In this document: positions 16,584 through 26,611 of the stretch, piece by piece | Layout: the number at the start of each line of letters is the position of its first letter | Numbering within the stretch: the stretch's first letter is position 1 | DNA from: a virus | Direction: 5' to 3' (one strand) | Length of the DNA: 64,000 nucleotides | IMG/VR virus record: IMGVR_UViG_3300024987_000055 | Notes under the pieces: model-generated | Told to the model about the DNA's origin: nothing | The model's input: the letters and a program-made list of their open reading frames with translations, nothing else | Databases searched by the model: none | Position numbers and translations under genes: made by a program

Positions 16584-16817
16584 GCTTTATTTGCTAATAA
16601 TGAAACTATGCTATTAAAAATGAGGATATTATGGTTAAGGAAAATAGATTAGAAAAGTACCAAGAGGTGTCAGCCCTTAAAGGAATTTTGGTGTGTCAAA
16701 TTGTACAACTATTCAGGTATTGTATACTAACAAACTGGTTTTGTTTCGAGGTGATGAATGAAACCTCAGAAATTTATGCTAGAGCAATCGGGTAATTTGA
16801 AAATAAGACAGAGAGAT

Positions 16818-17078
16818 ATGTTAGTAGATATAGTGACGAAGAAAGACCTGGAAGAGTTCCGGATTAAATTGCTGGAAGAGATTAAGCAAGTCTTAAACCT
16901 ACAAGTTGAGAAGAGTTATCCTAAATCAATTAAGACAAAGGAAGTCCTTAAGATTTTACAGATATCCGCTGGGAAATTACAAAGCTTAAGGATATCTGGA
17001 GAGTTGTCCTATAAAAAGGTTGGAGGAAACTATTATTACAACTATAAAGAAGTAAAACAGCTACTACCAAAAGATTAA
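16818..17078 (+). CDS. HTH_17/MerR-like DNA-binding protein (excisionase-like)
   Basis: IVTKKDLEEF..IKTKEVLKILQISAGKLQSLRISGELSYKKVGG; start moved from 16758. Confidence 0.8.
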   Translation: MLVDIVTKKDLEEFRIKLLEEIKQVLNLQVEKSYPKSIKTKEVLKILQISAGKLQSLRISGELSYKKVGGNYYYNYKEVKQLLPKD

Positions 17079-18091: not shown

Positions 18092-18225
18092 TCAAAATTT
18101 CCAAGGTAGTTATAGATTCAAAATTGTAAGGAATATTAGTATATTTAAAATACCTTTGTTTTGGGTATAATTGTTGGAAATACCCATTTTTATACCTATT
18201 ATCTCAATAGAATTAGGAATCAAAA

Positions 18226-20598
18226 ATGAATGAATTAGAAATAAGAAATAAACTTGCTGATGTTCTGGTAAATAATCCTGAAAATTATTCAGAGATACTC
18301 GAATTATCATCGCAACTAGCATCTTTTGATAGAGATAATGTTAGATTTTCTGTAGATGCTGGAGTAATAGATCGATTAGGGAAAGAACTAGTTGCTCGAC
18401 ATGAAACAGCCGTATCAGAACTAGTGAAAAATGCATATGATGCAGATGCGTCTTTTGTAGAAATAATTTTTAAAGATTCAAATAATATTGGGGGAACATT
18501 ATCACTTGAAGATGATGGGCACGGTATGACAAAAGAACAACTAGTCAATGGTTTTATGAAAATCTCATCTTCTGACAAATTTCACAATCCCATCTCTCCT
18601 TTATATAAAAGAATTCGTGCTGGAAAAAAAGGTATAGGTAGATTCGCAACTCAAAGATTAGGTGAAAAATTAATTATTATAACTCAAACTGAAGAAAGTG
18701 AATATGCAATTAAAGTTGAAATTGATTGGGGCAAATTCAATATGGATAAAAATTTAATAAGTATTTCTAATTCAATAATAGAGGTTCCAAAAGAGAGAGT
18801 CAAGGGTACTACTTTAAAAATTGAGGGCCTACGTGAAAATTGGAGTGTTCCTGCAATTAAGCGTGTATTTAAATATAGCATGGATGTAATTCAGCCATTC
18901 CCCATTTCTAGACAATCTGTTGGCCCAATTGAGGAAAAAATAGGTGAAGACATAACTGATCCTGGATTTGAAATTCGATGTTGGCAATCAATAAATGGAG
19001 GACTTGAAGAAATTGCAGATAATGATACAATGATTTTTGAACATGCCCTTGCTGAGATTACTGGTGAAATTGACAATGAAGGCTTCGGAGATTGGGAAGT
19101 GATAAGTACAAAACTGGGTTTAATAGATTCAGGAATAATTGGTCGTACACAAAAAGATGAAAAGGAACCATTTAAATTTATCAGGAATTTAAAATTTAAA
19201 GCATATTATTTCATTTATAATATTGGAATGATTCCCAAAATGGTTACCGGGTATATACAACAAAAAGCTAATGATAGTGGAGGATTTCGCCTTTACAGAA
19301 ATGGGTTTAGAGTTCTTCCATATGGAGAACCACAAAATGATTGGCTTGGATTAGATGAATCACAAAGAAGGAGAGTAATACTTCCCCCACATGGAAATAA
19401 TAGCTTTTTTGGATTTGTTGAAATTACAGATCATTCTGGAACAGTTTTCAATGAGTTATCTAGTCGAGAGGGATTATTTAAAGACGATTCTTACGATGAA
19501 TTAGTAGATTTTATATATCGCTCAATCTTAGCGTCTGTTTTGCGAATTGCAGAGTTTAGAAAAAAGAAGCAGAAAACTGGACAGAAGAATTACCAAAAAG
19601 ATGATCTATCACCTTCAGAGGAAGTTAATAAACTTGCTGATGATCTAGATGAACTTGCAAATTCTATTTCTAACAATCCAACAGAATCAAAAACAGAAAA
19701 TAAAGACAATGAATCAACGGAAAATAATGAGCATAAAAAAGAAGATGAAGAGAATTATAATAACAATACTGAGAACGAAGAACAATCTCGTAAATTTAGA
19801 GAATTTGCAGAAAAATTAAGGAGTGCTGCTGAAAGCCTTGAAGAACTTGGTTTACTAAGAGTACTTGCAGGGCTGGGCCTAACAATTGGAGAATTTACAC
19901 ATGAAATAAAACAATATTTACCTGCTTTTGACGTGGACTCAGAATTCATTATTCAAAATTCACCAAATGATTCTGAAATAAAAAATAGAGGTATCAGATT
20001 AAAACAATCCTTCAATTCATTTAACACATATGCTTCTTATTTTGATGAAACAATATCACAAAATGTTCAGCGTGAATTAATAATTGTAGAATTAAGAGAT
20101 GTAGTTAATCAATTTCTAAGTGTTATCATCCCGGATTTAGAAAGAGGGTCAATTAATATAACTAAATCTTTTAATGATCCAAGTTTATTTACTTGCAAAA
20201 TGCATCCATCTGAATGGGCATCCATATTATTTAATCTATATAGTAATAGTAAAAAAGCAATCAAGAGAGCAAGATCTGAAGGGAAAATTAGTATAAATGC
20301 AGGTAAATTAGACAATATTGTATATTTAGAGTTCAGCGATAATGGTGATGGTGTACCAGATGAGAATGAAGAAAAAATATTTAATGCATTTTTCACTACA
20401 TCAAGCCAAGTTGGACATAAGGGTACACAAAGAGAAGAATTAGCAGGCACAGGACTTGGATTAAAAATTATTAGTGATATTATTGGAGCTTATGGGGGGG
20501 AAATTTTTTTAACCCCTTCTAAAGATGGATTTAAAACTACATTTCGAATAGAAATTCCGGCCGCTACGGAAGATGAAATTGCAAAGTATGACATATAA
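18226..20598 (+). CDS. GHKL (MutL/MORC-like) ATPase fused to HisKA-HATPase histidine kinase
   Basis: N-terminal ELVKNAYDADA, DDGHGM, GKKGIGRF; C-terminal FTHEIKQ, NLYSNS, DNGDGV, GTGLGL. Confidence 0.9.
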   Translation: MNELEIRNKLADVLVNNPENYSEILELSSQLASFDRDNVRFSVDAGVIDRLGKELVARHETAVSELVKNAYDADASFVEIIFKDSNNIGGTLSLEDDGHGMTKEQLVNGFMKISSSDKFHNPISPLYKRIRAGKKGIGRFATQRLGEKLIIITQTEESEYAIKVEIDWGKFNMDKNLISISNSIIEVPKERVKGTTLKIEGLRENWSVPAIKRVFKYSMDVIQPFPISRQSVGPIEEKIGEDITDPGFEIRCWQSINGGLEEIADNDTMIFEHALAEITGEIDNEGFGDWEVISTKLGLIDSGIIGRTQKDEKEPFKFIRNLKFKAYYFIYNIGMIPKMVTGYIQQKANDSGGFRLYRNGFRVLPYGEPQNDWLGLDESQRRRVILPPHGNNSFFGFVEITDHSGTVFNELSSREGLFKDDSYDELVDFIYRSILASVLRIAEFRKKKQKTGQKNYQKDDLSPSEEVNKLADDLDELANSISNNPTESKTENKDNESTENNEHKKEDEENYNNNTENEEQSRKFREFAEKLRSAAESLEELGLLRVLAGLGLTIGEFTHEIKQYLPAFDVDSEFIIQNSPNDSEIKNRGIRLKQSFNSFNTYASYFDETISQNVQRELIIVELRDVVNQFLSVIIPDLERGSINITKSFNDPSLFTCKMHPSEWASILFNLYSNSKKAIKRARSEGKISINAGKLDNIVYLEFSDNGDGVPDENEEKIFNAFFTTSSQVGHKGTQREELAGTGLGLKIISDIIGAYGGEIFLTPSKDGFKTTFRIEIPAATEDEIAKYDI

Positions 20599-21682
20599 CA
20601 TTATTTACATAGATGACGACCAGAATTCGAAAATTCTAGTTGATGGTTTCAACACAACCGGACTTTTAAATGTTACTAGGATAAAACCAACTTCTTTTGA
20701 AGATCAAATTAATGAACTGTTGGATTATGGTAATACAATTCAAGGTATTATCCTTGATTTGAAATTTGATGAAGATTTCTCTGAAGATAGGAAGGCATAT
20801 TATTCAGCTACGACCCTTGCACAGCAAATAAGAACCAAGGTGAACGAAGGGGATTGGAAAAATGAAATCCCATTAATTTTGTTTACTACTCAATTAAAAT
20901 TAGATGCAGCTTTTAGTGGAGACACTACAAGTAAGAAACTTTTTGATATAATTTTCACAAAGGATAAAATTACTGATATTTCCTTACAGGAGAAAATATA
21001 TTCAATTGTGGATGGTTACAATTTAATAAAACAAAATAAACCAAATTTTGCAAAAATATTGGATATTGATACAATTGATATTCTTGATCAAAGAATTTTC
21101 CCACTAAATCTCTTAAAAGCAGATCAGGGTTCTAATATTCACAATTATTCAAAACACATATTAAATGAGCTTATAGAAAGACCTGGACCATTAATTGATG
21201 AATTATATTTAGCAGCTCGGCTAGGTGTTGATATTGGATTATCAAATCAATGGAAAGATTTTATTAATAATGAATTGACAGGTGTTAAATATACAGGAAT
21301 TTTTAACTCAGCATGGGATCGCTGGTGGATGTTTAAACTAAATAATTGGTGGGAAAATAACATTGATAAAAATCCTATCGCTACTCTTGATGCTCGAGAC
21401 AGAATTGAAAAATTGAATTCAAAATTCAATTATAATTTAGTCGTAGCAAAACCCATATCTAAAGCTACTAGTTATAGATATTGGACTATTTGTCAAGGAT
21501 ACGATAAACCACTTGATCCACGAGAAGGATTAAGAATAAATGAATCTGAACCTTTACCATGGCAAGAAACAAAATATATCTCTATTGATGCAGCGATAGA
21601 AAGAGTCAAAAGAAAGGAAGGTTTAAAAATAAATCCTATTGAAAAGACAAGATTCGAAAATATTTTAAAGTCTTTTCAATAA
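20588..21682 (+). CDS. Response regulator receiver domain plus unknown C-terminal domain
   Basis: IIYIDDD, GIILDLKF (phosphoacceptor Asp), PLILFT; overlaps kinase stop; start moved from 20573. Confidence 0.82.
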   Translation: MTYNIIYIDDDQNSKILVDGFNTTGLLNVTRIKPTSFEDQINELLDYGNTIQGIILDLKFDEDFSEDRKAYYSATTLAQQIRTKVNEGDWKNEIPLILFTTQLKLDAAFSGDTTSKKLFDIIFTKDKITDISLQEKIYSIVDGYNLIKQNKPNFAKILDIDTIDILDQRIFPLNLLKADQGSNIHNYSKHILNELIERPGPLIDELYLAARLGVDIGLSNQWKDFINNELTGVKYTGIFNSAWDRWWMFKLNNWWENNIDKNPIATLDARDRIEKLNSKFNYNLVVAKPISKATSYRYWTICQGYDKPLDPREGLRINESEPLPWQETKYISIDAAIERVKRKEGLKINPIEKTRFENILKSFQ

Positions 21683-22485
21683 TGGCAATTAATAGTAAAA
21701 CAAAAGCATTTAGAATAGAAAGAGCTAGCGAATTGGAACAATTTGCAAGAGTTCTTCAAAAGTCTGGAATATGTGATCCAAGTTACATTTTTGATGCCGC
21801 GAAACAGTTAAGAGATTTTGAATTTGTACCAAAAATTGAGAAAGATGATCCAGTAGATTATAATTTTTGGGGATATGATTCTGGTGAAATTATTTTCTAT
21901 TTTGAAAATTCCCCTAGGCATACATATCCAGTAAATGCATCAAATCTGTCATTAACTTTAACTGTAAAAGTTATTGCTGACTACAATGATTTTCAAGCAA
22001 TTTGTGATCCCTATAAACATTTAGAATTCAATATTATCATAAATGGTGGTCTTTTTGATAAATCTTCACAAGAAACCAGAGAGTTAGTGACATCATACCA
22101 TCTTGATAGACATATCTTTAAAGAAGGCGATAACGAACCTGAAGATTGCCATCCAATTTATCACCTTCAATTTGGTGGTAGAAAATTAGAAAAAAGTAAT
22201 AGGGATTTTGGAAATGCATTGATTCTGGATGCACCGCGTGTTGCACACTATCCAATGGATATAATATTAGGGGTTGATTTTATTTTGTCAAACTTTTTTT
22301 CAAAAACTTGGAGATCCCTCAGACGCGATGGAGAATACATAAATTTAGTTAAAGATTACCAACAATATTTTTGGAAACCTTATGCTCATAGTAGTGCCTC
22401 ACACTGGAAACCATATACTCATCATGATGTTAACTGGGATCCTGTAAATATCTGGCCACAATTATTGTTATTAAGTAATGGATAA
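21682..22485 (+). CDS. Hypothetical protein with His-rich motifs (candidate effector)
   Basis: YHLDRH..HPIYHLQFGG..PRVAHYPMDIILGVDF; TAATG coupling to the upstream gene. Confidence 0.75.
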   Translation: MAINSKTKAFRIERASELEQFARVLQKSGICDPSYIFDAAKQLRDFEFVPKIEKDDPVDYNFWGYDSGEIIFYFENSPRHTYPVNASNLSLTLTVKVIADYNDFQAICDPYKHLEFNIIINGGLFDKSSQETRELVTSYHLDRHIFKEGDNEPEDCHPIYHLQFGGRKLEKSNRDFGNALILDAPRVAHYPMDIILGVDFILSNFFSKTWRSLRRDGEYINLVKDYQQYFWKPYAHSSASHWKPYTHHDVNWDPVNIWPQLLLLSNG

Positions 22486-24325
22486 ACAAATATTTAAAAT
22501 ACTAAAAAAATACTCAAACGATACTTTTAAAGTAAACAGCTTAATTATTAGCGCATTTATACAAATAAATGAAATTGCAATTATTAAAAATCTTGAAATT
22601 AAGAACCATATAATAAAAAAAGATAGTTCAGATTGGGAAATATTATTAGAAATTACAAGCTGTTTCCCTAAAAAAAAATTTGGGTTTGAAGAACTCATTG
22701 AACTATTTGAGTTCGTAATATCACCATCTGATAAACTAATAAATGGTGCAGTTTATACCCCTAAATATATAAGAGAATATATCACTGATCAAGTATTCCA
22801 AAGAATATTAAAACCTGTAAATGAAGTAAAAGCAGTTGATATTTCTTGTGGTTGTGGAGGGTTCTTATTATCTGTTGCAAGTAAAATACAATCCCTCACT
22901 AAAAAAACATATGATACAATTTTCAAAGAAAATATCTATGGAATTGATATTGAGGAATACAGTGTAGTAAGAGCGAAACTTCTACTTTCACTTTTCGCAA
23001 TTATTAATGGCGAAGACAAAATGGTATTTTCGTTTAATCTTTTTTCAGCGAATTCATTATTATTTGACTGGAAAGCTACCGTTACTGAAATTAGAATTAA
23101 TAATGGTTTTGATATAGTTGTCGGGAATCCTCCATATGTAGCGTCTAGAAATATGGAAAAAGAAACAATTAAACTGCTATCTAAATTTAAAGTTGCAAGT
23201 ACTGGTCATCCAGATCTATATATTCCATTTTTTCAAATTGGATATGAATTACTAAATAAAGAAGGCATATTAGGCTATATAACCGTTAATACTTTTACGA
23301 AAAGCATTAATGGACGTGCATTAAGGCAATATTTTCAAGATCAAAATGCGGGTTTAGAAATTATTACTTTTGGTGGTGAGCAAATATTCAAAGATCGAAA
23401 TACTTATACATGTATTTGTTTTCTTAATCAAAACCTGGGCTATATACGCTTTATAAAATGTTCAAGTAACGAATTAGAGAAACTTAAACAAGATGATTTT
23501 AATGAATTTAAGTATGAAGATTTAAATAATTTTGATGGCTGGAATCTTACAAATTCTAAGTCATTAAATAATTTTATTACTACAATAGAATCAGTCGGAA
23601 AGCCATTTAAAAGCAAATATGTTACTAAAAATGGTATTGCAACTCTAAAAAATTATATATACAAATTTGTACCCTTAAAAGAAGATCAAGATTATTATTA
23701 TTTACCATATGAGGACGAATTATATCCAATAGAAAAGGGTATTTGTAGGGATATAATAAATGCTAATAAACTGAAAAAAAATAGTGATTTAATAAACAAA
23801 TTAGAAAAGATAATTTTTCCATATTATTCACAAAATGATAAAATTTTAATTATTCCGGAAAGGATGTTAAAAAAGGAATACCCTAAAGCTTATAAATATT
23901 TGTTTTCTCAAAAAGATATTTTAGCAACCAGAGATAAAGGAGAAGGAAAATATGAGGAATGGTATGCATTTGGACGTAGACAATCTCTAGATATTAAACA
24001 ATACAAATTATTCTTTCCACATATTTGTAATAGACCATCTTTTGTAATTTCTGAAGACCCAAATCTACTATTCTACAATGGAATAGCAGTAGTCAACGAC
24101 GATTTGGAGGAACTTAAAATATTAAAAAAAATAATGGAGACTGATATGTTTTTCAAATACATACAGGCTACTACTAAAGATTATGCATCTGGATATTTGT
24201 CTATGAGTAGAAATTATTTAAAGAACTTTGGTATTTATGACTTCAATAAAATTGAAAGAAGTGAAATTTTAAAATCTAAAAATCCTGAATTGTTAATACA
24301 AGAAAAATATAACCTTGATTTTTAG
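22478..24325 (+). CDS. N6-adenine DNA methyltransferase (Eco57I/TaqI-like) with C-terminal target recognition domain
   Basis: GAVYTP, DISCGCGGFL (motif I), VVGNPPY (motif IV), DLYIPF, KLFFP. Confidence 0.9.
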   Translation: MDKQIFKILKKYSNDTFKVNSLIISAFIQINEIAIIKNLEIKNHIIKKDSSDWEILLEITSCFPKKKFGFEELIELFEFVISPSDKLINGAVYTPKYIREYITDQVFQRILKPVNEVKAVDISCGCGGFLLSVASKIQSLTKKTYDTIFKENIYGIDIEEYSVVRAKLLLSLFAIINGEDKMVFSFNLFSANSLLFDWKATVTEIRINNGFDIVVGNPPYVASRNMEKETIKLLSKFKVASTGHPDLYIPFFQIGYELLNKEGILGYITVNTFTKSINGRALRQYFQDQNAGLEIITFGGEQIFKDRNTYTCICFLNQNLGYIRFIKCSSNELEKLKQDDFNEFKYEDLNNFDGWNLTNSKSLNNFITTIESVGKPFKSKYVTKNGIATLKNYIYKFVPLKEDQDYYYLPYEDELYPIEKGICRDIINANKLKKNSDLINKLEKIIFPYYSQNDKILIIPERMLKKEYPKAYKYLFSQKDILATRDKGEGKYEEWYAFGRRQSLDIKQYKLFFPHICNRPSFVISEDPNLLFYNGIAVVNDDLEELKILKKIMETDMFFKYIQATTKDYASGYLSMSRNYLKNFGIYDFNKIERSEILKSKNPELLIQEKYNLDF

Positions 24326-24408
24326 TTATTAACATTAGCCCCAGTCACTAAAAAATTCTTGACTCCAATTCCTAATATTTTTATAAATTACAAAACTGCT
24401 ATAGATTA

Positions 24409-24880
24409 CTATAGCAGTCTTTGCAACTCTGCATTAACAATTTCCTTTACTTCATTTCTAATCGCAATTTAATTGCTTTGAACCAAAACTTGTTAGATCT
24501 TTCGAATTACCAGGATCGGTTTATAAACATCATCCTCAACCTTCAAACACATATGATTATTATGAATTACACAATAAAAAGTTTTCAATTCAATCTTTTC
24601 TCAGGGGAATCTGTAACCAATCTGATAAACTCTTCACTATTTAATGCCGAAATTTTAGAGGCATGAACCGCTGCTCCAATAGTTTGCTTATACTAATGGA
24701 TGTATGAGTGCGGTTAAGTGATAAACTTTGTCGATGCTGATTTAAACGCCATTTTCGATCAGATAATAACTTTGCAGTTTCACCGGTAACCTGTCCGGAA
24801 ATGACGTTTACAACTATGCTCATTATAACATCTGCTTGCTCCTTTCCCTAACCTTTCCTAAGCTGAGATAGGTCTTGTTG
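24409..24880 (-). pseudogene. mobC: Degenerate MobC/VirD4-like coupling protein C-terminal remnant
   Basis: QDLSQLRKG*GKEQADVIMSIVVNVISGQVTGETAK..AAVHASKISALNSEEF..KIELKTF..NAELQRLL*, with frameshifts and stops. Confidence 0.8.
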
Positions 24881-25130
24881 TTAAAAACAAAAGTCTGGAT
24901 AATAGTTTTTAAATAATTATAGGCTGTTTTGTTGGAAAATAAAATTTTAATCTTCAATTATCATATCTTTGCTACAATCATTTCGGATGATTGCTCTTTG
25001 ATACAAGACAAATTTAAAAATTAGACAGTATACGAATTTCCGGAATTCAGAAAAGAAAACTGAAATCCACATTCGTGGCAGTGTGTCAGAAGCACTTAAA
25101 ATATATTATTGAAATGCAGGAAAAGCAGCT

Positions 25131-25153
25131 GGTTCGAATCCCTCCTCTTCCGC
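25131..25153 (+). other. att core 1: tRNA-Ser-like 3' fragment
   Basis: GGTTCGAATCCCTCCTCTTCCGC = T-loop, acceptor strand, discriminator G; no 5' half upstream. Confidence 0.7.
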
Positions 25154-25163
25154 TAAATGATAT

Positions 25164-25196
25164 AAATGCCACGAATAATCCTTATTCGTGGCATTT
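25164..25196. terminator. Perfect hairpin between the att cores
   Basis: AAATGCCACGAATAA-tcc-TTATTCGTGGCATTT. Confidence 0.7.
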
Positions 25197-25246
25197 TTGT
25201 TTTAAGCACTATAGAATACGCGCGGGAAGAGGTTTTAACCCATAAA

Positions 25247-25268
25247 GTTCGAATCCCTCTCTCTCCGC
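25247..25268 (+). other. att core 2 (prophage left junction): tRNA-Ser-like 3' fragment
   Basis: GTTCGAATCCCTCTCTCTCCGC, 84 nt upstream of the phage integrase. Confidence 0.8.
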
Positions 25269-25351
25269 TGAAAGTTCTAATAAGCAGTACTGTAGCAGGT
25301 TTTCGGAATGCCAGTGTTTAATGTCAAACAAAAGTTCAAACATTATTCACT

Positions 25352-26611
25352 ATGTCTACAAAAAAGAGCTTAGAAGTCAAATTGTTTCATTACGATGCTG
25401 ACATTACCAAGGAATGGTATGTCGGCTTTCGCATGGAATGTCCTACCTCCGGAAAAAGAAAGCCTTTTCAAATCAGGCTAGGAATAAACTACGAGCATAC
25501 AGTTAAAAGCCGGATGCGTGTAGGCAACGATCTTGTCGAACTGGTTAAGCAATCGCTGGATGCAGGATGGGACCCCTTTGACCAACCATTGGATATTTAT
25601 CTGGAAAACTTTCAAACAGTAGAAGTGAAAGCAAAACTGGAAGCCGATAGGGTAGAGGCGGAACGCATTGAACGCCTGGGGCTTGTCAATTGCTTACAGC
25701 GTGCTTTTAAAAATCGTGAAAAGTCCTTTGCTAAAAAATCCCGCACAGATATTGAAGGTGTTCTGAATTTCGCGGTTGCTGCAGCAACGACATTGGGTTT
25801 GGATAAGATGATCATTTCAGAAGCAAGGAAAAGCACAGTTAAGGCTATTTTAGACCAGATAGCAATTGATCGGCAGGCAGAATATGATCTCCACGCTCGC
25901 CTTGGTAAGAGGAAGAATATTTTTACCGGTAACTCATATAATAAATATAAGGGCTATTTAAGCATTCTTTTCGCCGATATTGAGGGCGATGATCTAATTG
26001 AATTTAATCCATGCGCTAAAATCAAAAATCGCCGGGAAATTAAAACAAACATACACCGGCACGCGACTGAGGAAGAGAGAACGATTATTGTGAGTACTTT
26101 AAAAACTAATCATTACCGGTTTTATAAATTCCTGTCAACAATTCATGCTGCCGGGGTCAGAATAGAAGAATTGATGAGCTTTAAAATATTCGATATTGAT
26201 CATGTCAACAAAGGCCTAAAGCTTGATCACACTATTGCAAAGACTGATGAATCCAGGATTGTACCTTTGCCGCTGTTTGCTTATGATTATATCTGTGAAA
26301 TGACTGACGGTTATCCGGATCATTATTACATATTCAATACGGATTTTAAACCAGGCACATTTGAGCGGAAGCGCCCGGGAGATTATGCTACTAAGAAATG
26401 GCGTGAAATTATAAAGGAGGGCCTGGGACTTTCAGTATCTCTTTATTCCTTTAAAGGTCTGGGTGGTGAAGACAAGCGTAAGGCCGGGGTATCTAAAGGT
26501 GCAGTTTCTGCCGGATTCGGTCACAGCTCCTTAAATATGACAGATGTTTACCTGCACGGGGAACAGGATAGGATTAATGCAGAAATAAGGGAAAGAAGCC
26601 CAGAATTATAA
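25352..26611 (+). CDS. int: Phage tyrosine integrase
   Basis: GVRIEEL, KTDESRIVPL, YSFK, GHSSLNMTDVY; adjacent to att. Confidence 0.92.
   Translation: MSTKKSLEVKLFHYDADITKEWYVGFRMECPTSGKRKPFQIRLGINYEHTVKSRMRVGNDLVELVKQSLDAGWDPFDQPLDIYLENFQTVEVKAKLEADRVEAERIERLGLVNCLQRAFKNREKSFAKKSRTDIEGVLNFAVAAATTLGLDKMIISEARKSTVKAILDQIAIDRQAEYDLHARLGKRKNIFTGNSYNKYKGYLSILFADIEGDDLIEFNPCAKIKNRREIKTNIHRHATEEERTIIVSTLKTNHYRFYKFLSTIHAAGVRIEELMSFKIFDIDHVNKGLKLDHTIAKTDESRIVPLPLFAYDYICEMTDGYPDHYYIFNTDFKPGTFERKRPGDYATKKWREIIKEGLGLSVSLYSFKGLGGEDKRKAGVSKGAVSAGFGHSSLNMTDVYLHGEQDRINAEIRERSPEL

Follow-up and report, generated by a model that had tools for sequence, protein, structure and literature searches.

Organization of the locus

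The locus described here lies in a 64,000-nucleotide stretch of viral DNA (IMG/VR record IMGVR_UViG_3300024987_000055), which at its full length is referred to below as the window. Four open reading frames (ORFs), designated g1 to g4, were called between positions 18226 and 24325, all of them co-directional on the + strand. The first, g1 (18226..20598), was identified by Pfam matches and motifs as the gene of a soluble paraMORC-type GHKL ATPase joined to a histidine kinase (790 amino acids, aa), and g2 (20588..21682), by fold and conserved residues, as that of a receiver followed by an output region (364 aa). Alignments and invariant residues placed the 267-aa product of g3 (21682..22485), the candidate effector, in an unnamed family, while g4 (22478..24325) was recognized by Pfam, PADLOC and motifs as the gene of an Eco57I/gamma-class N6-adenine DNA methyltransferase (615 aa). 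We read the cassette as a probable defence module, linked to DNA modification and gated by a phosphorelay, and infer its mechanism. To the same kind belongs Ambrosia (AbrR-AbrA-AbrB-AbrC-AbrD), a system of Pseudomonas aeruginosa that blocks phages (van den Berg et al., bioRxiv 10.1101/2025.09.30.679545).

Successive genes overlapped by 11 bp (g1/g2), 1 bp (g2/g3) and 8 bp (g3/g4), and the guanine-plus-cytosine (GC) content was 0.27-0.32 over 17-25 kb compared with about 0.35-0.45 on either side. An earlier reading of the DNA letters, referred to here as the sequence-only reading, had described four overlapping, translationally coupled, AT-rich genes, and these figures bear it out. An alternative start of g2 at 20573 would yield 369 aa; the public form of the protein (P0038) begins at 20588 and is the 364-aa version.

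The ATPase-kinase and the receiver protein

Pfam matched HATPase_c_3 to residues 60-187 (1e-24) and HATPase_c to residues 666-780 (2.5e-23) of g1. The protein was accordingly divided into a GHKL ATPase (about 1-445), a low-complexity linker (445-540), the DHp H box with H559, and a kinase catalytic domain (about 660-785); it is soluble and has no transmembrane sensor. The H box (H559-E560) carried the FTHEIKQ motif. The N-terminal GHKL module resembled that of the BbrUII/HgiDII restriction enzymes (6.5e-21), and the C-terminus resembled ordinary sensor kinases. In an alignment of 72 orthologues the residues E65, N69, D72, D96xGxG, the G133/G136/G138 lid and T195 of the first GHKL module, the middle-domain motif R358-N-G-F ... 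D372-W, and H559-E560, D705xGxG, F719, F722 and G741xGxG of the kinase module (G1, F and G2 boxes) were invariant or nearly so, and the catalytic motifs of both GHKL modules were kept in all 72. The predicted protein is shown by these alignments to carry a catalytically intact MORC/MutL-like GHKL ATPase in place of the kinase sensor domain, ahead of an intact DHp and catalytic domain. The two GHKL modules, the phosphoacceptor His and the missing transmembrane sensor had been read correctly from the letters. The Pfam family HEF_HK (PF19191) gave no match in g1 at E<=10, and the genome scan with it matched another contig only.

The receiver of g2 was missed by Pfam in the window protein, for which no Pfam, NCBIfam or PADLOC family was found, and Response_reg matched just 6 of 55 members of the g2 family, weakly. 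It was recognized by its fold and motifs, not by a family model. In an AlphaFold model (pLDDT 92.6) residues 1-150 superposed on receiver domains with VIA Z scores of 11-12.6 and a root-mean-square deviation of 2.0-2.7 A, Foldseek giving a like result, and in the 55-sequence family alignment D9, D10 and D57 were invariant and K125 near-invariant. On this basis the protein is shown to start with a complete receiver with the predicted phospho-acceptor D57, so that the "complete receiver" of the sequence-only reading was right. As judged from sequences and models, the two-component parts of the cassette appear complete: the phospho-acceptor His, the N/G1/F/G2 boxes, and the acidic pocket, Asp and Lys of the receiver.

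The output region of g2 (150-364, about 215 aa) gave no ESM Atlas feature match and no PDB profile match; structural searches with g2 were dominated by the receiver part. Partial alignments with a few full-length OmpR-type regulators ran as far as residue 243 or so, which hints weakly that residues 180-243 or thereabouts may hold a helix-turn-helix (HTH)-like part. Response_reg_2 (PF19192) was matched by 0 of 55 g2-family members at E<=1, its genome scan gave no match at E<=10, and alignment of g2 with true Response_reg_2 members by hhalign reached E 0.019 over 41 columns.

The candidate effector and the methylase

The product of g3 showed the invariant pattern H140-x-D142 ... H157-P158-x-x-H161 ... 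G165-G166 ... P185-R186 ... P191 ... D199-F200. No Pfam, NCBIfam or PADLOC family matched it, and Pfam matched none of 87 family members. An exhaustive hidden Markov model search placed 967 clusters (50% identity) in the family at E<=1e-3, of which 389 also passed E<=1e-30; among the best 150 of the 967 clusters every relative was a stand-alone protein, in nearly every case about 240-290 aa long. When solved structures were searched, no sequence-profile match was obtained, Foldseek returned E>0.4, and the best hit of an exhaustive VIA scan had a Z of 5.0. A homologue of g3 was not found in phage records.

Several identities were considered for g3. HNH and HNH_2 gave no match in the protein and whole-genome scans with PF01844 and PF13391 missed the window contig; with no profile match to the HNH protein of the Pseudomonas locus L121 (described below) either, an HNH nuclease found no support. 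A link to DUF4253, raised by a Foldseek similarity to one AlphaFold DB cluster (E 1e-4, TM 0.58), was not borne out by hhalign (E 0.39). An earlier remark that g3 recalls DUF2290 (PF10053) holds in so far as the invariant residues of the two coincide over about 50 columns (HPxxH..G, R, P, F-I-L..N-F), but the statistics are weak: hhalign gave E 0.02 and, with a deeper profile, 8e-4 at best (probability 24%), 0 of 87 g3 members matched DUF2290 in Pfam, and fold comparison with a mixed cluster gave TM 0.38-0.42. DUF2290 is paired with a helicase in a defence system that is encoded by a satellite.

We take g3 to be the effector of the cassette because it sits in the slot of the HNH protein in an Ambrosia-type cassette and carries an invariant cluster of His and Asp residues. 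From that cluster comes the tentative guess, given somewhat less than even weight, that it may be a metal-dependent nuclease or hydrolase. Since neither the g3 family nor the g2 output domain has a Pfam model, the system escapes present-day annotation and defence finders.

For g4, Pfam reported Eco57I (9e-33), N6_Mtase (3e-16) and MmeI_Mtase, and the stand-alone PADLOC type II methyltransferase model MTase_II PDLC03335 aligned with it end to end (1e-101, 31-601/607). The translation carried the motifs DISCGCGGF and GNPPY. Type IIG enzymes matched over the methylase and target-recognition part only, for which reason g4 is held to have no nuclease domain; by its predicted domains it is shown to be a complete Eco57I-type gamma N6-adenine methylase with a target-recognition region. 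This agrees with the earlier description of an Eco57I-like methyltransferase lacking a restriction endonuclease domain. A cognate restriction endonuclease was found neither in g4 nor among g1-g3, in which Pfam, PADLOC and NCBIfam detected no nuclease family. Models of MADS, BREX and DISARM matched only the methylase fold of g4, far under their cut-offs. Searches for a named defence system with PADLOC returned a match of the g1 GHKL part to a type II restriction endonuclease model, a 32-residue LmuA blip in g2, not taken as identity, and nothing in g3.

Conservation and exchange of the modification partner

A profile of g3 was searched against one genome per species (185,579 species), which gave 122 genomes, and 80 loci were fetched; as the survey was anchored on g3, it covers g1-g2 pairs that are accompanied by that gene. 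The genes g1-g2-g3 stood in the same order and on the same strand in all 70 loci with enough upstream DNA, the other 10 of the 80 being cut by contig ends. The hosts of the trio were Bacteroidota, Campylobacterota, Pseudomonadota, Chloroflexota, Acidobacteriota, Gemmatimonadota, Rhodothermota and Balneolota.

Three kinds of partner were found beside it. An Eco57I-type methylase lay directly 3' of g3 in 31 loci, as in the window, and one with M_Eco57I_C directly 5' of g1 in 15 (Marinobacter, Pseudomonas, Chloroflexota, Acidobacteriota and others). At 19-21 loci, all from Bacteroidota, sspB-sspC-sspD stood directly 5' of g1, the ORFs of the whole run sspB-sspC-sspD-g1-g2-g3 overlapping; PADLOC scored SspB at 5e-106 to 4e-114, SspC at E=0 and SspD at 2e-93, with SspA nearby in some loci. 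The Flavobacterium subsaxonicum locus L074 is one of this Ssp-linked type. In a tree of concatenated g1+g2+g3 the Ssp-linked trios formed a single clade (support 100) and those with a downstream methylase another. The tree disagreed with taxonomy, and because it cuts across it, horizontal transfer of the trio is indicated.

The conserved core is shown by these gene neighbourhoods to be g1-g2-g3 with an exchangeable putative DNA-marking module, either an adenine methylase or SspBCD. The four-gene unit suggested by the sequence-only reading stands as to the trio, which was kept in all 70 loci and occurs in mobile and defence-island contexts; it does not stand as to the modification gene, which is exchangeable and not a fixed fourth member. 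One invariant three-gene relay plugged into two unrelated marks, N6-methyladenine and backbone phosphorothioate (PT), constitutes a natural experiment. When Ssp-linked and methylase-linked trios were compared, one clade-specific conserved residue was found in g1, none in g2 and none in g3. Because almost no such residues separate the two groups, it may be doubted, if weakly, that the trio reads one mark through a fixed pocket; the comparison spans a single evolutionary switch.

The pairing of the trio with two chemically different self-marking modules, in the place where restriction genes sit, would also suit a classical restriction-modification (R-M) system, in which the methylase or SspBCD marks self and g1-g2-g3 form a constitutive ATP-dependent restriction complex (compare DndFGH and SspFGH), the kinase and receiver serving assembly or allostery. 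To this may be added the homology of the g1 N-terminus to the GHKL ATPases of BbrUII/HgiDII-type restriction enzymes, the prediction of DNA looping by the paraMORCs of R-M systems (Iyer, Abhiman and Aravind 2008, PMC2292703) and the report that SspFGH damages non-PT DNA (PMC8092258). Such a complex is nevertheless considered unlikely, given that H559-E560, the kinase boxes and the receiver Asp pocket are strictly invariant (72 and 55 sequences), which would imply real phosphotransfer, and that the trios of the two clades have essentially no specific residues beyond the one in g1. Ambrosia speaks in the same direction: the receiver substitution D60A abolishes its defence, and methylation by AbrA gave phages no protection. 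Every gene of Ambrosia is needed for defence, infection induces its expression, and its two-component pair appears to turn that expression on (bioRxiv 10.1101/2025.09.30.679545). The missing protection by AbrA and the near absence of clade-specific residues also leave unsupported the suggestion of the sequence-only reading that the ATPase senses unmethylated DNA while the methyltransferase marks self.

Other neighbours of the trio were recorded in the same loci. An AbiEi (DUF6577)/AbiEii pair was located directly 5' of g1 in several Flavobacteriaceae loci, namely L009, L019, L020, L034, L036 and L039 (about 3.6-6.6 kb) and L005 (3930-5551); AbiE next to g1 is a recurring defence-island pairing. 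In L057 (10722-15861) sspBCD-g1-g2-g3 faces convergent genes for a PbeA homologue (PADLOC E=0), for an SMC ATPase resembling PbeC/DndD and for a small protein resembling dnd_assoc_4, and a PbeA/PbeC-like module of this sort was also present at L044, L051, L059, L066, L075, L083 and L085. Loci of the L057 type would have two candidate PT-dependent restriction modules flanking one Ssp writer. In Mesorhizobium and Sphingobium loci (L065, 1154-10554; L049, 2204-9347) g1 was extended at its N-terminus by about 190 aa, and the neighbouring genes encoded a DUF4365 protein and one with NERD + AAA. A second, decayed copy (L048), with g2 in four pieces, was present in Sphingobium sp. Ant17; decaying copies with g1 or g2 broken were represented by L076, L048 and L080.

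These neighbourhoods bear on a reading without immunity, in which an orphan methylase, under the command of the two-component system, would tune host gene expression, g3 being an accessory enzyme with no part in attack on DNA. It is in keeping with the want of a cognate nuclease for g4 and with the HTH-like segment that g2 may hold. It does not account for the exchange of the methylase for sspBCD, for the patchy horizontal distribution with occasional decay (L076, L048, L080) or for the co-location with AbiE, Pbe and other defence genes, and is regarded as very improbable.

Boundaries and genomic context

A candidate promoter element, TACCTTTG (18152..18159, +), was located about 67 nt 5' of the g1 start by pattern match. 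It fits TAnnTTTG, the Bacteroidota -7 promoter consensus; a sigma-70 promoter scan was uninformative in the region upstream of g1. On the other side, 67 nt past the g4 stop, a terminator-like scan and the sequence itself gave a hairpin with a 13-bp stem (24392..24421, no strand assigned), a possible terminator; its better T-tract is on the - strand, so its role as a terminator for the + strand operon is uncertain. As pattern matches, TACCTTTG and the hairpin may bound the cassette transcript.

In the window the cassette is preceded by DUF932, SSB and a small HTH_17 gene and followed by a tyrosine integrase. Because of these neighbours the AT-rich block is, as judged from gene content, cargo at the edge of a mobile element, an integrative and conjugative element (ICE) or other conjugative element. 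The 106-aa HTH_17 protein (16758-17078) has a homologue at the same relative position in the Flagellimonas locus L036 (cluster c12) and may be an excisionase-like or regulator gene that travels with the island. Two fragments resembling tRNA 3' ends (GGTTCGAATCCC...) were noted at 25071-25270, where they flank a perfect 15-bp hairpin ahead of the tyrosine integrase gene (25352-26611). ARAGORN called no tRNA at these fragments near 25.1-25.3 kb, for which reason they are read as att remnants; by their sequence they look like the junction of two elements.

A Hymenobacter plasmid carried the same four genes, with no annotation beyond "sensor histidine kinase", "hypothetical protein" (twice) and "N-6 DNA methylase", and an Algoriphagus orthologue adjoined TraG and ArdC as ICE cargo. 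Cargo of this kind might serve chiefly to stabilize the element: the kinase-receiver pair, like the controller (C) protein of an R-M system, would time the methylase against a toxin (g3) on entry of the ICE or plasmid. Bellieny-Rabelo et al. (PMC8011034) proposed regulation of R-M genes for related elements, and the authors of Ambrosia raised both C-protein-like control and possible toxicity (bioRxiv 10.1101/2025.09.30.679545). Many copies of the trio are nonetheless chromosomal, among housekeeping genes (urease operon, ribonucleotide reductase, cytochrome b), a MORC-like ATPase would be a costly sensor for mere timing, and the sister system Ambrosia protects against phages; addiction or establishment control as the main function is thus judged quite unlikely.

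Proposed mechanism

The reading preferred here, to which rather better than even weight is given, is that a conjugative element carries, as cargo, an Ambrosia-like immune (or addiction) module that is linked to modification and signals by His-Asp phosphotransfer. Either DNA or an infection cue would be engaged by the GHKL clamp of g1, whose ATPase cycle would gate autophosphorylation at H559, from which the phosphate would pass to D57 of g2. Phosphorylated g2 would then act through its output region of about 215 aa, either by switching the operon on, as proposed for the receiver (REC)-winged HTH (wHTH) protein of Ambrosia, or by directly licensing g3, which would act as the effector. The system would depend on the modification module in order to function or be tolerated, the mark either protecting self or creating the target.

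Several observations weigh against this reading. The check for a named system that had been called for with the sequence-only reading ended without one for g1-g3 in PADLOC 2.0. The output region of g2 lacks a match, so that "transcription factor" and "effector activator" are guesses. No recognizable catalytic fold was found in g3 and, among the matches listed in the family search, no fusion and no named relative; the model of the protein is least confident in the His/Asp region (pLDDT 61-72). Two proteobacterial lineages, Mesorhizobium and Sphingobium, have the trio with no adjacent modification gene, and at about eight Ssp-linked loci the PbeA/PbeC-like module is another possible restriction partner for Ssp. 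Finally, the Ambrosia preprint gives no accessions, and the comparison made below therefore uses a Pseudomonas locus (L121) that fits the described layout, not the tested genes.

A more specific form of the phosphorelay reading is put forward with some doubt, as rather less probable than its opposite: g1-g2-g3 may be a self-contained, "mark-agnostic" restriction module, in which a MORC-like clamp and phosphorelay license g3 against invading DNA, and which serves as partner of a clade of orphan SspBCD systems and of orphan Eco57I-type methylases alike. If this is true, the trio would be a third Ssp-associated restriction type, with a new effector family whose fold is absent from solved structures. 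About 85% of the sspBCD clusters surveyed were reported to be without a known restriction partner (PMC8092258), and the trio could supply the missing restriction arm for part of them. The cassette also bears on the role of MORC/MutL-like ATPases in bacterial immunity and on the reason for which phosphotransfer signalling, and not direct cutting, is used by some modification-linked systems.

Comparison with known systems

The architecture was described computationally in 2021 as soluble HATPase_c_3 + HEF_HK + HATPase_c kinases beside Response_reg_2 proteins, elements that are enriched near R-M genes, derive from paraMORCs and were proposed to have a regulatory role over R-M genes (Bellieny-Rabelo, Pretorius and Moleleki, PMC8011034). 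The window cassette shares with them a soluble HATPase_c_3 + DHp + HATPase_c kinase beside a divergent receiver protein near DNA methylases. The N-terminal 450 aa of g1 matched HEF_HK kinases at 1e-22 to 1e-24, the paraMORC head alone being detectably common. The HEF_HK kinases and the Response_reg_2 proteins differ in size (about 990 and 540-620 aa for true members in Bacteroidota) and in company (mostly C5 methylases, Vsr and HNH_2), and they have no equivalent of g3, the g2 and g3 profiles finding nothing in them. Membership of the cassette in this group was rejected, as neither Pfam model matches g1 or g2, and so was the notion that the 540-620-aa Response_reg_2 proteins are g2+g3 fusions, the profile similarity being absent. 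Canonical cassettes of the group were seen in the Bacteroidota genomes G126, G300 and G187 (L094-L096), where a kinase of about 990 aa is preceded by a protein of about 365 aa and followed by a receiver-like one of about 575 aa; Response_reg_2 was present in 6 of 301 sampled Bacteroidota genomes.

With SspABCD-SspE and SspBCD-SspFGH the likeness is one of position, since the trio of one clade takes the operon place of SspE or SspFGH after sspB-sspC-sspD. There is no sequence relation to g1-g3, and the window carries a methylase, not Ssp. An identity of g1-g3 with SspFGH was rejected, as the Walker A motif described for SspF and the FtsK-like features of SspH (PMC8092258) are absent. In PADLOC no Ssp, Dnd or Pbe model matched g1-g3. 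Detocs resembles the scheme proposed for the cassette in that a histidine kinase phosphorylates a receiver-effector protein for defence; no PADLOC model of DtcA, DtcB or DtcC matched g1 or g2 at E<=0.01. Detocs (DtcABC) combines a sensor of the TPR type with a buffer receiver and a PNP effector, and is not known to include a modification gene. The paraMORCs of R-M systems (PMC2292703) and the GHKL-Shedu protein VcSduA (PMC12137116) share the MORC/MutL-like GHKL as an ATP-driven regulatory head, but are fused to or directly partnered with nucleases or helicases, and none has a histidine-kinase module.

Ambrosia is the sole experimentally validated system of this design. Its genes encode an XRE/HipB-like regulator (AbrR), an N6-adenine methylase (AbrA), a HATPase kinase (AbrB), a REC-wHTH protein (AbrC) and a type IV HNH nuclease (AbrD) (bioRxiv 10.1101/2025.09.30.679545). 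The window cassette likewise clusters an N6-adenine methylase, a kinase with an HSP90/GHKL-like ATPase, a receiver protein and a fourth, candidate effector gene. The proteins encoded by the Pseudomonas stand-in L121 are of 517 aa, 740 aa (the kinase), 210 aa (the receiver protein) and 200 aa (with Pfam HNH, 5e-8); its kinase aligned end to end with g1 (24% identity, E 2e-45) and its receiver with that of g2 (hhalign 93%, E 3e-7).

The two differ in several respects. The effector of Ambrosia is an HNH nuclease, whereas the window cassette has g3 in that slot; the receiver protein is of about 210 aa (REC + wHTH, as in L121) against 364 aa in g2, which has another output region; the methylase of the window comes last; and the window family also has an Ssp-linked clade. 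An XRE regulator heads the Ambrosia cluster, while none lies directly 5' of g1 and none was found near the cassette, the nearest upstream regulator-like ORF being that of the HTH_17 protein (16758-17078), 1.1 kb off.

Further cassettes were seen in Pseudomonas. Locus L119 (3609-9995, genome G395) encodes a 113-aa ORF, a 461-aa methylase, a 747-aa paraMORC-kinase, a 351-aa g2-like and a 242-aa g3-like protein. In profile-profile comparison the 351-aa protein aligned with g2 over 280 columns (81%, E 1e-5), and the 242-aa protein holds the g3 motif H-x-D ... HPxxHxQFG (E 7e-4); by these alignments L119 is a distant version of the system of the window, detectable by profile-profile comparison only. 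Other paraMORC cassettes (L117, L118, L120) had a 728-732-aa GHKL protein followed by one of 470 aa, or a 736-aa kinase followed by proteins of 402, 220 and 140 aa. Such arrangements suggest that paraMORC cassettes form a large combinatorial family.

The view that no characterized system of such a composition is known, expressed in the sequence-only reading, must be given up in the light of the 2021 computation (PMC8011034) and the validation of Ambrosia in 2025 (bioRxiv 10.1101/2025.09.30.679545). With the kind of system predicted and a sister validated, the family of the window is most likely, on sequence comparison, a distinct variant of it, set apart by a receiver-output domain of its own, by a candidate effector family without a name and by a sister clade that is linked to Ssp.

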